This document shows, piece by piece, positions 30,001 to 39,000 of a stretch of 64,000 nt of DNA. The DNA is taken from the NCBI GenBank assembly GCA_963785725.1, contig CAWAWS010000033.1:192001-256000 (forward strand), read 5' to 3'. The position numbers are program-made. The DNA is from an uncultured delta proteobacterium. Its GTDB lineage: Bacteria; Myxococcota_A; Polyangia; Palsa-1104. Every line of letters begins with the position of its first letter. Within the stretch, counting starts at the first letter, position 1.

Positions 30001-33000
30001 TTCGTGTTTGACGGTGAAGGGCTGGCCGCTGAATTGGTAAGTGGCGCGCGGCATCGAGTGGCCGTCGATGACGACGGGACCGGGGCCGGCACAGCCGACG
30101 GCGACCACGCCCAACGCGAGAATGAGTGGGCGAATGGGTGCGAACATGGCGATTGTTCCTCGAATGACGTTAAGGATTAAGCGTTCGCGTACGAATAATG
30201 GATTGCGTCTCATGCGCCGGCGGCCTTCGCGGCGCGCAGCTTCAAGAGGCGTAGCGACGGATAGCCGAGCGTCAGCGTCTGCAGCGTCCAGCCGATGGCG
30301 GCCGCAGGCGCGACGCCGCTGGCCAGGCGAAATGCGTAGGCCGCCTCGCCGACATGCAGCGCGACCGCGCCGACGAAGACGGCGATGAGCACCGCGGCCG
30401 GCGGCAGCCAAAACAGGTGCGCCGTCCACCACGCGAGCGCCGGCGGGTCGAAGGCGAGCACGCCGAGCGTGGTCATTCCGGCGATGATGGTGATCCACCA
30501 AACGACGTGCGGACGATCGATAGGCGACATGAGGCGCATGATAACCGGGCGCGGCGCCGCGGGAAAGTCGGGCATCCCGGCGCGGCCGATTCCAGGCGAT
30601 GACGCTAGCCTGTTCGCGTCGACCAGGCATGTGACGGCGGCACTTGCCGGACGCGCCAAGCCGCTCGAGCAATCGACACGCACGAGGGACGGCGCTCCGC
30701 GGATGGCGCGCGAGAATCGCGACAACGACGCGCCACTGCTGGGCTATCCGGCACCTTCGAGCTGCTCGAAGACGATTTATGAAGGCTTCGGCGACTCGAA
30801 CTATTACGAATTGGGCGAGAAGATCGATCCGACGTCGTTCGAGGCGGTGACGGTCAGGCCCGAGTAATCGCGATTCACAGCAGCGCGTAGCCCGTAACGG
30901 TGTTCAATAGACGTGCGGGACGAACAGCTGCGGCGGAATGGGACCGCGCAGGTAATTCGGGTTGTGCACGCGCGCCGGAAGCTCGACCGTAGGCTGCTCG
31001 ATATCGCCCGCCGGAATCTGCTCCAGCAAGTGATGAATGCAGTTCAGACGCGCCCGCTTCTTATCATTGGCTTCGACGACCCACCAGCGCGCTTCGGGAA
31101 TATGCGTGCGCTCGATCATCGTCTCTTTGGCTTTCGTATAGTCTTCCCAATGGCGGCGCGACTCCAAGTCCATCGGGCTCAATTTCCAGCGCTTCAAAGG
31201 ATCGTGAATCCGCATCGCGAATCGTAAGTACTGCTCGTCATCGGTGATCGAAAACCAATATTTGATGAGCACGATTCCCGAGCGCACGAGCATCTTTTCG
31301 AACTCGGGCGTGCTGCGAAAGAACTCTTCGTATTCTTCGTCGCTGCAAAAGCCCATGACGCGCTCGACGTTGGCGCGGTTGTACCAGCTGCGATCGAAGA
31401 GCACGATCTCGCCGCCGGCCGGCAGATGCGCGATGTATCGCTGGAAATACCACTGCGTGCGCTCGCGGTCGTTGGGCGCGGGCAACGCGGCGACGCGGCA
31501 CACACGCGGGTTCAATCGCTGCGTAATGCGCTTGATGACGCCGCCTTTGCCGGCCGCGTCGCGCCCTTCGAAGAGCACGACGACTTTGAGCTTATTGCGG
31601 ACGACCCAGTCTTGCAGCTTGACCAGCTCGCCCTGCAGCCGCAACAGCTCGCGAAAATAGCGGCCGCGATCGAGCGCCGGCCCGTGGCCGTTGCCGTCGT
31701 TCTTGAGCGCGCCGTCGTCGAGCTCCATCTCCAGCTCTTCGTCGATGCTATCGAGCACCTCGCTGCGGACGCGCTGCTGGAGATCGCCGATGTCGAGACC
31801 GTAGCGTTCGTCTTGGCCGCTCACGAGTTCACCGCCAATGAGGCATACGAATGAAGCAAAGCTGCAGCGAGCATGGGCAGAAGGGCTCCTTTGCCGCAGC
31901 CTACTGCCGCGGCGTTACGCGCACGGTCACCATCCGGCAAATCCCGCGTGACGGACGGACGACATATTACCTCGACCCGCGGTGGCAGCCTACCCAGGCC
32001 GAGGCGATGCGTCAGGCGCACGAAATGAGCGAGTTTCGCGGCCGGCGAAATGGGTTTTCCGTGCTTCACCGAACCCATCCAACGGGGCGGCCGCAAGCGG
32101 TGGACGGGCGCGGAGCTCGACCGCGCCCAGCGGCCCGCATACTGAACGAATCAACAGCAGATAGAACGCGAGGCAAGTCGACTCGCCGGATAGTGACTCA
32201 GCCTACGAATCTCGAGTGCTCCTGAGACAGCCTGAGACGCTGTCTCATGGGACAGCGGGGAATGCGAAAATCCGCCGGCGCGACACGCGAAATCAATCAT
32301 TTGCCGCTCGCGGGATCGACGCCTAGCGGATTGACGGGTCGCGGAATTCGCCTCAGTTTTGGCGGCTGTCCCAGGGACTGGCTTGGCTCGCGGGCTGCAT
32401 TAGGCGTCGGCCAGGATACGACTTGAAGCCGCGCACTGGCCATTGTACGGACGTTGCGATGCCCGACGCCAAAGGCGACGCTGGCCGCCACGACGACGCG
32501 CGGAACGCGACCATCACCACGACCGGCGACGACGGCCCGCGCGACGCGACGATCACCACGACCGGCGACGAGGGCGCGCCCAATACGCCGCGCCAGTTGA
32601 CCTCGACGACGCGCGCGTTCGACCACTACGAAGTCGAGAGCGAGCATGCGCGCGGCGGCATCGGCCGGGTGTTGCGCGCCTGGGACAATCGGCTGCAGCG
32701 TCCCGTCGCGATCAAAGAGCTGCTCGCGGCCAATGATCAACATGCGCGCCGCTTCCTGCGCGAAATCGGGATCACCGCGCGCTTACAACATCCCAGTATC
32801 GTTCCCGTCTATGAAGCGGGACAGGCGCCGAATGGCTCGCCCTTTTATGCCATGCGTTTCGTCAGCGGCCGCACTCTGCGACAGCTCATCGACGCCGCCG
32901 GCAGCCTCGACGCGCGCATGGCGTTGTTACCCAACGTCCTCGCCGTCGCCGACGCGATCGCTTATGCGCATTCGGAGGGCATTCTTCATCGCGACTTGAA

Positions 33001-36000: not shown

Positions 36001-39000
36001 CCAGTCAGTCGACACCGGCGGGCAGGTCACGACGAGCGGCATGAAGATCTGCAGCAACGTCAGTGACGTCACGCTGTAGACGGCGACGAATCGCCGCGTC
36101 GTTGCACCTTCAAGCCGCCGCGTCGGGCGACACGCGCCTCTCGGTCGTGGGCTCGACGCGGCGGCGCAGCGCCGGTCGCGCGCCGGCGCCGTTCATTTGG
36201 CGCTCGAGCCAGCGCTGCGCCGGCTGCTCGACGGTCAGGTGGAACGTCAAGCCGACGCCGTAAACCAACAGTCCGAAGACGACGACGAAGTGTAAGCCGC
36301 CGAGCGGCAGCGCCGCCGCGAGCACGAGGTACATGAGCGGCATCTGCAAGATGTAGATGTCGTAGCTGGCGCGCCCGAGGCCGCGCAGCGGTCGCGAGCC
36401 GAGGACGCGACCGACCAGCCCGCGCGCGCCGGCCGCCGACCAGACGATGGCGCCGAAGCAGGGCATCAAGAGCGCGTTGTGGACGAGCGCGAACGGCAAG
36501 CGATCAGACAGCGACAGCGTCGCGGCGGCGACCGCCAGCGCCAGCGCGCCCAGCCAAGGCCGCGAACGGCGCGCCGGGTCGAACGAGAGGCCGAGCGTGA
36601 CGCCGAAGGCGAGCTCGGGCAGCCGCGCCGGCGGCCAGAACTTCAGGAAACCGAGGTAGAAGGCGTTGCTGTCGGGGCCGACGACGCCGTCGGGCGCGAT
36701 CGCGCTGTAGCCGCCGGCGATGACGAGCGCCGACGCCCAAATCGCCGCTAAAAGCCAGCGTCGCCGCGCCGCCGACAAGCCGGCGATGGCGCGGATCAGC
36801 GACGGCAAGACGAGGTAGAACGCGACCTCGATGGAGATGCTCCACGCCGGCAGATTCCACGTCAGCGCCACCGGCGGCCACCACGCCTGCAGAAACAGCA
36901 GCTGCAACACGCCGCCGAGCGGGTTGGCGACCACGTTCGCGTCGTGCCGCCACGCCAGCGGCACGAGCACGACGAGCGCGGCCAGATACGCCGGCAACAG
37001 CCGCGAGATTCGGCGGACGAGAAAGCGGCGATGGTCGAACGCGCGGCCGTCGCTGTCGAGGATGCGCGGACCGTAGCTGAGCGCGAGCACGAAGCCCGAG
37101 AGCACGTAAAAGAACGAGACGCCGACGAAGCCGCTGCCGCCGAGCGCGCGCAGCCAACGCGGCGCCGTCGTCAAGAGCGGGCGGCCGAAGTGAAAGAAGA
37201 AGACGTAGAGCGACACGAAGGGCCGCAGCCCCGTCAGCGCGTCGATGCGGCGCTCGGGATTCATGCGGCGACGGTGTCACGCGCGCGCTGAACGCCGCGC
37301 GGCAGCTCGGCGACGTCGCCATTGCAGCTCTGCGCCGTTTCGGCCACGAGCGGCTGTCGCGCGGCCGAAAGCGTGCGACCTCGAGCCATCGCACAGGACG
37401 CATCGCCGCCGAATGTGACGCGGCCGATTCGGCGCATCGACGGGATCGCGAATCATGACCGCGCATACGTGCATTTGCCGTCGCGTAGCGATCGGCGTCT
37501 CGCGTTCGGTGTAGGTTCGGATCGAGCGCGAACCTAGAAGGACGCGCAGTCGTGCACATCAGATCTGCCCGCGCACAATCATTAAACACTAGCTGCTCTC
37601 AAACGTTAGATAACCCGCAAATATTTGGGATCACGTGGTCTTTTGCTACGGTCGACGTTGCCAATCGCTACGCCGCGCGCGCGCTCGAGTGCATTTGAAT
37701 CGCGCGGTAAGCGGCTAACTTTCGACCGCAATTTTACGCTTCGGTGATCGCTCGCTCACGCTGGCGTGTCGATTGCTCAGTCGCGCCGCCGCACAGCACT
37801 TCCTGTCTACATCCATTGGAATTCGGGAGGACGGCATGACGCGCAAGAGAATCAATACGGCATTGTTCGTATCCATCGTATGCGTCGCGGGCTGCAGCGG
37901 TGAGCCGGCGGAGGAGAGCAACAGCGTCGAGGCGGAGATCGCGGCCATCGTCCCGCATTCGTTCGCGCGCGTCTGCGATGCGCCGACCGAAGAGGGCCAC
38001 GCCAGCTGCCACGCGCTCGTGCGCACCGACGAGAGCGGCATCGTGCCGTTCGCCACGACAGTCAGCGGATTCGGCCCGACGGATCTGGCCAGCGCTTACA
38101 AGCTCAACACGGCCGGCGGCAGCGGCGCCACCATCGCCATCGTCGACGCGTATGACGATCCGAACGCCGAGAGCGACCTGGCGTTCTATCGTTCGCACTT
38201 TGGTTTGCCCGCTTGCACCACCGCCAATGGCTGCTTCAAGAAGGTCAATGAGAAGGGCCAGACGACTTCATTGCCGGCGGCCAACAGCGGTTGGGCCAGC
38301 GAGATCGCCCTCGACATCGAAATGGCGTCGGCCGTCTGCCCGAAGTGCAAGATCATCCTCGTCGAGGCCTCGTCGACGAGCTTCGCCGACCTGGGCGCGG
38401 GCGTGAACGCGGCCGTCAGCCTCGGCGCCACCGTCGTCAGCAATAGCTACGGCGGCAGCGAGAGCTCGGGCGAAACCAGCTCCGACACCTATTACAATCA
38501 TCCCGGCGTCGGCATCTTCGTGTCGTCGGGCGATGGCGGTTACGGCGTCGAATATCCGGCCGCGTCGAAGTACGTGACCGCGGTCGGCGGCACGTCGCTG
38601 GCGAAGTCGTCGGCGTCGCGCGGCTGGGTCGAGTCGGTGTGGGGCTCGGCCAAGAACACGAACGGCGGCGCCGGCTCGGGCTGCTCGAAGTACGAGACGA
38701 AGCCGTCGTATCAAAAAGACAGCGGCTGCACGAAGCGCACGGTCGCCGACGTCTCGGCGGTCGCCGATCCGAACACCGGCGTCGCCGTTTACGACACGTA
38801 CGGTGGCAAGGGCTGGGCCGTCTACGGCGGCACGTCGGTGGCGTCGCCGATCGTCGCCAGCATCCACGCGCTCGCCGGCCACGGCGCAGACTCGCTCGGC
38901 CTCTCTTACGCGCATCCGAGCTGGTTCTTCGACGTCACCTCGGGCACCAACGGCAACTGCAGCGGCTCCTATTTGTGCACGGGCGAAGTCGGCTACGACG

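Follow-up and report, generated by a model that had tools for sequence, protein, structure and literature searches.

The window, a 64,000-nucleotide stretch of contig C33 from an uncultured delta proteobacterium, encodes a membrane Hanks-type Ser/Thr kinase (32459..35830, + strand; 1123 amino acids from the ATG) followed by a small peptide gene. The kinase belongs to what we call type A: a kinase domain, a transmembrane (TM) helix, a helical linker, tandem WD40 propellers, and a C-terminal helix. The kinase domain (amino acids 62-320; 32642..33418, +; PF00069, 120.5 bits) is predicted to be cytoplasmic. Its catalytic motifs are intact (VAIKE at residue 83, HRDLKPSN at 177, DWG at 197, and GTPFYMPPE at 235), and its glycine loop, ARGGIGRV, fails a stricter glycine-loop pattern. 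A single TM helix is predicted at amino acids 361-379 (33539..33595, +) from a KD hydrophobicity window only (KD 1.96), and type A homologues have a helix at the equivalent place (KD 1.5-2.9). So the motifs and the helix that the genome-wide survey's note placed near residue 360 are there, and the protein has the catalytic lysine, HRDxKPxN, DxG, single TM segment, and C-terminal sensor domain of a Hanks-type receptor kinase.

Past the helix there is a linker of three helices that carries the family motif DPT..LAWLK (33647..33796, +), seen in alignments and in an AF2 model, and then 64 strands, or about 16 WD40 blades in two propellers (33809..35740, +; AF2 model), which we propose to be a periplasmic sensor. 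With a 71-row alignment, AF2 modeled the propeller region at a pLDDT of 89.7 and a pTM of 0.88; from the single sequence, the pLDDT was just 36. The best Foldseek matches of the window model are tandem WD40 proteins (TM ~0.36). Both flanks of the type A helix are basic and so do not point to one orientation. We suggest that the propellers face the periplasm by likeness to the Planctomycetota kinases, whose WD40 domains are predicted to be periplasmic in the portions of PMC11032199 that describe them. The kinase-TM-WD40/TPR proteins of Planctomycetota and myxobacteria in that account share the domain order, the predicted topology, and the lineage-specific expansion; unlike here, where a candidate ligand gene is adjacent, those portions mention no ligand or linked peptide gene.

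The peptide gene (35888-36079, +) starts 57 bp past the kinase gene and has a ribosome-binding site, GGAGAG, at 35878..35883 (+; GGAG is 6 nt upstream). It encodes a 63-residue precursor of the form LxLxKx5L…GG. The leader (amino acids 1-32; 35888..35983, +) is of the double-glycine type, LxLxKETLxxL...VLGG, and scores 36.2 bits with NF038153 (cut-off 22) and 24.2 bits with TIGR04149 (cut-off 25). The core (35984..36079, +) has 31 residues, with two cysteines that are each preceded by Thr/Ser, and is followed by the stop codon. Both the NF038153 leader and the Ser/Thr ahead of the core cysteines are features of class I lanthipeptide precursors. A second such pair lies on the same contig, as had been reported: the peptide next to g06834 scores 27 bits with NF038153 and lies about 23 bp past the end of the read-through kinase. 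The frameshift in that kinase is about two-thirds into the gene (~C33:326258) rather than near its end.

Convergent to the window pair is an acyltransferase-3 gene (36110..37264, - strand; PF01757). It is probably outside the module because its homologue in two relatives (G030 and G031) stands without an adjoining kinase or peptide. A promoter scan gave 0 sigma-70 sites and no convincing terminator, and there was no sigma-54 motif in the two window stretches that were scanned. The synteny of the window is not kept within the genus, so no empty site can be demonstrated there. A 411-residue neighbor on C33 had no match in a sequence search of the PDB.

The pairing of these genes is real and is wider than first reported. 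We saw it in 22 genomes (the kinase domain was checked in 12) and with three kinase architectures that share the peptide partner: kinase-TM-WD40, kinase-TM-PD40, and kinase-(nSTAND1)-TM-WD40. In the window's own genome (G000), a recount gave seven kinase-propeller genes (5 WD40 and 2 PD40) instead of nine. There, 2 of 97 kinases adjoin any of the seven leaders, and both are of the kinase-propeller type; by a naive binomial, the chance that two of seven leaders would lie within 500 bp of seven propeller kinases is about 1e-5. Of the 29 propeller kinases of G038 that could be evaluated, 19 have a leader beside them, against 1 of the 134 further kinases that were listed (Fisher p 1e-16; the paralogues are not independent). 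Nor is the pair confined to the order: in G443, from the Kofleriaceae, a leader is found at 19 of 21 propeller ends, and the remaining two are at contig ends. (The accompanying TM checks covered 8 of 10.) The gaps between kinase and peptide are often 0-60 bp, and there are convergent and divergent layouts too. A few kinase-TPR and kinase-FGE genes also adjoin leaders. Only the type of sensor, and not the kinase, predicts the pairing.

The linkage is not obligatory. In a GTDB scan, the peptide was present at 5 of 48 evaluable type A loci, and 5 of the 13 PD40 kinases of G038 and 5 of the 7 propeller kinases of G000 lack it; therefore, the sensors can work without the peptide. In a phylum sample, the leader was in 2 of 400 other genomes, neither time with a kinase, but at most 19 candidates were scored per genome and a leader-rich family was missed, so this does not imply absence. 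Viral contigs, searched with two queries, gave neither a type A nor a type C kinase. Could orphan precursors and kinases simply collect in variable islands, or could a chance fusion have been copied by duplication? The counts are inflated by arrays of paralogues, the synteny is lost as described above, and on the type A tree (a quick method only, with L094 and L142 left out) the peptide label needs nine changes, of which at least three are forced by strong branches. On the other hand, leaders hardly ever adjoin other kinases in G038, the pairing spans three unrelated architectures in several orientations, and at 60 new GTDB loci all seven peptides (at five loci) were within 400 bp of the kinase, with no others in the flanking sequence, which reached up to 6 kb, and 0 matches in a reversed-sequence control. 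We consider the absence of any functional link to be very unlikely.

The earlier claim that no LanB or LanC is nearby holds for C33, where we found no match to either, and so the window has no LanB and LanC beside the precursor as a class I cluster would. It does not hold as a sign of independence: the enzymes are encoded in trans, and in several relatives they are adjacent. LanB is present in G000 and in 5 of 5 relatives. Elsewhere in G000 there are a LanB on C47, three LanC, and one C39 exporter; these LanB/LanC genes adjoin peptides that carry the NF038153-type leader, and some LanC lack an adjoining LanB. The LanB of G000 is in three pieces, which is a point against the cassette reading. 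All 5 genomes tested have a C39 exporter, and the catalytic Cys motif was seen in 4 of the 5 exporter sequences, the 4 that were inspected for it. For double-glycine (PCAT) export, G000 has a GG site as well as a C39 ABC transporter with HlyD (G000:C26). In relatives, the pair sits within LanB/LanC/exporter clusters (LanB/LanC are adjacent in G028 and G031). For example, G028:C118 has the order LanB, kinase-WD40, two peptides, S9 peptidase, a gene marked X, exporter, and HlyD. Some peptides have local tailoring enzymes beside them (rSAM TIGR03975 or PqqD/2OG-like).

A kinase beside a precursor might instead be a biosynthetic enzyme that phosphorylates Ser/Thr of its neighbor, giving a phospho-RiPP or the first step to dehydration ahead of LanC, as the kinase domain does in LanL/LanKC. 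LanL/LanKC and the TOMM kinase/cyclase (TIGR03903) also combine a Ser/Thr kinase domain with a RiPP precursor. The cores are rich in Ser/Thr, co-transcription is likely where the gap is about 0 bp, and besides the G000 LanC genes that lack an adjoining LanB, G443:C161 and G441:C433 carry kinase-peptide-esterase-like-LanC clusters whose retrieved stretches contain no LanB. However, the window kinase is far under the cut-offs for these enzymes (TIGR03903, 137/706 bits; NF038150, 85.9/650; NF038151, 28.9/575) and has a TM helix and propellers rather than a lyase or cyclase domain. The same genomes encode LanB, many homologous kinases have no peptide, the pairing tracks the propeller and not the kinase, and a 700-residue domain past the TM helix would be left unexplained. 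A biosynthetic role is unlikely.

The cores suggest what the peptides might be. In the 24 type C pairs (of 28; in 4, our script did not recover the peptide), all leaders end in GG, GA, or AG by eye, and every core has a Cys with a Ser/Thr 2-8 residues ahead of it. Ser/Thr precedes Cys in 41 of 48 cores examined. Many cores have just 11-16 residues and a single Cys. The peptides might be antimicrobial lanthipeptides or bacteriocins. The linked kinase would then respond to the toxin of its own cell or of a competitor by turning on immunity or production, as NisK does on sensing nisin. Ordinary class I clusters carry this leader too (at 112 unique metagenome leader loci, the most frequent neighbors were LanC or LanB), some kinase cassettes lie within LanB/exporter clusters, and PMC7268733, in the portions on class I LanA, has both the leader motif and the C39 exporter. 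Our peptides resemble those precursors (NF038153; Walker et al. 2020, PMC7268733) in leader motif, GG end, Ser/Thr and Cys core, and a C39 exporter in the genome. They differ from what those portions describe in being dispersed singly, each with a receptor kinase, in most cases with no LanB/LanC adjoining and sometimes with rSAM or PqqD/2OG-like enzymes instead, and in their short cores, which often have one Cys. Against this reading are the many small one-Cys cores, and a non-systematic look noted no immunity gene by most cassettes; genomes with as many as about 20 paralogues, each with a sensor of its own, also suit signals better. So we view toxin sensing as unlikely too, if the least so of the alternatives.

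We think that the cassettes are probably undescribed signal-and-receptor pairs in soil myxobacteria. The survey's note had left the choice between signal/receptor and substrate/kinase; we favor the former because the GG motif is kept, the TM helix parts the kinase from the propellers, and the sensor type predicts the pairing, and the role itself is inferred. The sequences themselves show a Hanks kinase with its motifs intact, then one hydrophobic helix and two beta-propellers; next to this gene is a precursor with a conserved GG-type leader and a short, highly variable Cys core. Shared enzymes acting in trans would give the core a LanB/LanC thioether ring, or a tailoring enzyme encoded nearby would modify it. 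Cleavage at the GG and export of the core would fall to a C39 peptidase ABC transporter together with HlyD. In the periplasm, the core would bind the propellers of its linked kinase, and the kinase would autophosphorylate and signal onward to its targets. We give this whole scheme a probability of roughly 55%. With its paralogous cassettes, one cell could run as many as about 20 distinct peptide channels, for sensing density or self and neighbors. One line of reasoning against periplasmic sensing is that PCAT-HlyD would release a 1-4 kDa peptide beyond the outer membrane, from where it would have to get back into the periplasm. A complex prediction for the ectodomain (amino acids 395-1123) with the 63-residue precursor, without alignments, scored 0.00 with controls that did not fold, which decides nothing.

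Within G443, sensor and core co-diverge (rho 0.33, p 0.0025); in type A they do not do so significantly (p 0.10-0.16), and peptide-linked type A sensors evolve no faster than unlinked ones. Plain co-duplication would give co-divergence too. In G038, the type A kinases show weak co-divergence with their leaders (rho 0.34, p 0.02). Together with the nSTAND1-WD40 forms, which might act in defense or conflict, and the patchy, long-branched peptide-linked kinases on the type A tree, this would fit an unprocessed peptide that stays in the cell and uses its basic leader to bind the kinase domain, as an inhibitor or antidote. Against this, the GG site and the core Cys are conserved and tailoring enzymes adjoin some peptides, and we find it quite unlikely.

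The favored signal-and-receptor reading has partial precedents. ComC relies on double-glycine export through ComAB, and NisK mediates peptide autoinduction; both systems encode an exported leader peptide beside a membrane receptor kinase. Here, the proposed receptor combines a Hanks Ser/Thr kinase (PF00069) with a beta-propeller domain and is not a histidine kinase, which leaves the functional comparison unaffected. We noted no response regulator in the cassettes, the host is diderm, and there are many paralogous channels. The relevant portions of PMC13361665 treat ComCDE as a two-component system and describe Rgg/SHP pairs, which are likewise linked, divergent or convergent, and numerous in a genome; Rgg is a cytoplasmic transcription factor, unlike the membrane kinase proposed here. 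The survey's note took these recurrent modules to be undescribed, and our literature search, whose coverage excluded supplements and subscription journals, found no description of such peptide-kinase cassettes.

In Brassica, the single-pass Ser/Thr receptor kinase SRK is linked to SCR, a variable small Cys-containing peptide. This is an analogy only: the ectodomain fold and the secretion route are different, and the likeness is in the genetic linkage of a kinase with a variable Cys peptide. It is conceivable, but we would not bet on it, that the cassettes form a multiplexed peptide-hormone system, in which shared enzymes make tens of thioether-cyclized RiPPs and each RiPP has a genetically linked Ser/Thr receptor kinase that reads it. 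Such a system would be convergent with plant receptor-kinase/peptide signaling and might serve self/non-self recognition. To our knowledge, the ligands of myxobacterial membrane kinases are largely unknown. The Ser/Thr kinase sets of myxobacteria are described as among the largest in bacteria (in parts of PMC11032199 and PMC4880591), and if the multiplexed system exists, these would be the first candidate ligands for that expanded kinome. Diderm bacteria would then have peptide signaling through a receptor class new to it, and many "orphan" lanthipeptide precursors would be signals, not antibiotics. With one candidate ligand named per receptor, the question can be tested with short synthetic or heterologous peptides.

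A further point for the signal-and-receptor reading is that the nine family genomes (of 121) with close type C sensors each have 8-31 leaders, with a mean of 4.4 C39 genes versus 1.8; both genome size and kinship confound these PCAT counts. In another soil run (X1), one contig has a joint (32172-36200) that would delete the entire cassette, with a side of 35 letters at a likeness of 85, which is too weak for use. Allowing that X1 is possibly not independent of the window's source, an X1 contig (record 5) matches 35687-36249 and spans both the end of the kinase and the peptide gene, with 17 differences in 565.

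The pairing of propeller kinases with leader peptides in Myxococcota is real and recurrent, and it is apparently undescribed: full-text literature searches, with supplements and subscription journals outside their scope, found no paper on it. The window's kinase-WD40 gene (32459-35830, plus strand, 1123 aa) encodes a Pkinase domain with intact motifs (aa 62-320), a hydrophobic helix (aa 361-379) and WD40 repeats, an architecture shared with kinases of Planctomycetota and myxobacteria (PMC11032199, available text). An AlphaFold2 model of aa 396-1123 (71-row alignment, pLDDT 89.7) has 3 helices, 64 strands and a C-terminal helix; these strands would make about 16 blades in two propellers, and the closest solved folds are tandem WD40 proteins (TM about 0.36). 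Profile scores ruled out a LanL, LanKC or TOMM kinase/cyclase. At the N-terminus, two copies of a repeat, ATITTTGD(D/E)G (32510-32570), are a possible autophosphorylation patch. The 63-aa peptide gene (35888-36079) begins 57 bp past the kinase gene, with a GGAG site between, and scores 36.2 bits against NF038153 (cut-off 22). Its product has a 32-aa leader ending in GG and a 31-aa core containing two Cys; the accessible part of PMC7268733 describes the same LxLxKx5L/GG leader for class I lanthipeptide precursors with C39 exporters. An acyltransferase-3 gene (36110-37264) is convergent toward the peptide, and a look-alike, judged by appearance, lies upstream of another leader peptide of the source genome (G000:C8:88906-90027). 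An RND efflux pair (25043-29397) and polyphosphate kinase 2 (30904-31824) are ordinary neighbours.

The second pair that the genome-wide survey's note reported on this contig, C33, is real, but the frameshift it placed near the end of that kinase gene, g06834, sits about two-thirds in. The peptide is followed by a 411-aa unnamed protein (L001:8573-9808, which is G000:C33:323572-324807), whose nearest named Atlas match, PqqD/2OG-Fe(II) oxygenase (score 0.83), is a lead only; a homologue comes after a leader peptide in genome G445 too (L382). The source genome has seven leaders: two after kinases, one before LanC, two before LanC-LanB and two alone. Only 2 of its 97 HxDxKxxN kinases, those of the C33 pairs, have a leader within 800 bp, and five other propeller kinases have none beside them. 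The note's absence of LanB and LanC holds locally but not genome-wide, as other contigs encode LanB (three pieces), three LanC and a C39 exporter with HlyD. LanB (C47:159155-161127) and two kinases (C22:76973-80321; C33:326258) are split in this assembly, possibly by indel errors rather than as pseudogenes.

Leaders occur in 7 of the order's 42 genomes. One relative, G038, has 33; the fetched stretches, read by eye, place 21 of these no more than about 500 bp from a propeller kinase, either directly or with another peptide in between. In reverse, a leader accompanies 11 of 16 evaluable kinase-TM-WD40 genes (type A; two more are cut by contig ends) and 8 of 13 kinase-TM-PD40 genes (type B), versus 1 of 134 other kinases, a kinase-TPR, among the 150 matches listed and scored from 257 candidates, with only part of the 134 typed. 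Pairing tracks the sensor type, not the kinase; that kinase and peptide have no link at all seems highly improbable. In G032 the partner is kinase-nSTAND1-TM-WD40 (type C). The gene order on G028:C118 is LanB (opposite strand), kinase-WD40, two peptides, S9 peptidase, an unnamed protein, exporter and HlyD; on G031:C4 it is kinase, peptide, that unnamed protein again and LanB.

Nor, contrary to the note, is the pairing confined to the order: Kofleriaceae and Myxococcaceae loci also carry the leader. Searching GTDB with the type A linker yielded 78 loci, of which 18 duplicate earlier stretches, 12 are cut and 48 are evaluable. Five of the 48, four labelled Kofleriaceae and one Myxococcaceae in their records, have a leader within 400 bp; their genomes hold 7, 6, 31, 26 and 10 leaders. 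In a quick tree of type A, the peptide-free rows mostly group into a conserved clade of 40 and another of 5 (the latter with an N-terminal Cys motif and ECF-like genes alongside, judged by reading); of 19 peptide-linked rows, 17 belong to a single group of 26 with long branches and weak support. Among 27 leader loci of G443 (Kofleriaceae), 11 adjoin a kinase-WD40 ORF and 7 a WD40 end with the kinase cut off; 3 are ambiguous, 4 lack a propeller partner and the other 2 sit where a contig ends. Conversely, its 21 type-C propeller ends (query included) divide into 15 with a listed leader no more than 400 bp away, 4 with a leader of lower score and 2 at contig ends. Leaders occur in 49 genomes of a 121-genome family sample (unpublished genome G520 enters these tallies and no other claim); the nine with close type-C sensors have 8-31 each, and on average 4.4 C39 genes versus 1.8. 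We saw the pair in 12 genomes with the kinase domain checked, 7 by propeller end and 3 by coordinates. Of 115 unique metagenome leader matches, 44 of which have 1 kb or more of upstream sequence, one lies beside a kinase-WD40, and LanC and LanB are the commonest neighbours; outside this group the leader is mostly a mark of ordinary clusters. That the peptide is a toxin and the kinase its sensor we consider unlikely.

We favour, at roughly 0.55, a reading in which the core would be modified in trans, a C39 exporter would cleave the precursor and export the core, and predicted periplasmic propellers would sense it. Such pairs would work like peptide-pheromone cassettes, with a different receptor class. 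The topology is predicted from hydropathy and by analogy with the PMC11032199 kinases; an intracellular regulatory role for the peptide appears very unlikely. Same-strand, convergent and divergent layouts all occur, and gene orientation varies likewise in Rgg/SHP pairs (PMC13361665, available text). Against the export-and-sensing reading, many such kinases lack a peptide, and the peptide, once exported, must still reach the periplasm. In G443 the divergence of the sensor goes with that of the core (rho 0.33, p 0.0025); in type A the trend is not significant, and co-duplication alone can also produce this. Of 28 type-C pairs 4 were dropped; the remaining 24 all keep a GG/GA/AG leader end and a core Cys preceded by Ser/Thr. 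Many cores contain only one Cys, which rules out an internal disulfide and would fit a thioether.

PTxxC occurs in 22 of 48 cores analysed; in G038 (L057-L062, L072, L080, L082) it lies beside type A, type B, LanC or no partner, so the motif follows the genome, not the receptor. At L370 (G443:C161) and L374 (G441:C433) a conserved order is seen, kinase-WD40, peptide, erythromycin-esterase-like protein (PF05139) and LanC, with no LanB in either stretch. Such clusters favour the peptide being a substrate of the neighbouring kinase, still quite unlikely in our view; the esterase-like protein may serve to break down or tailor the peptide. A 404-417-aa unnamed protein after peptides beside LanB (L050:10820-12034; L046:15276-16529) has a weak C-terminal PqqD match (16 bits, cut-off 46) and is a candidate tailoring enzyme. 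L064 (G038:C120) has kinase-WD40, a B12 radical SAM (TIGR03975) and a Cys-free peptide, which suggests that this leader is used for non-lanthionine chemistry too. Some kinase-TPR and kinase-FGE-sulfatase genes (L171, L418, L420, L376) likewise have leader peptides next to them, so further sensor folds may take part in the pairing. Scans of viral contigs with two queries turned up no type A or type C kinase. On each of two phage-like contigs a leader-peptide gene stands alone (L431:2904-3071; L432:1834-2040), with no kinase, LanB or LanC called near it; these peptides are possible signal mimics.
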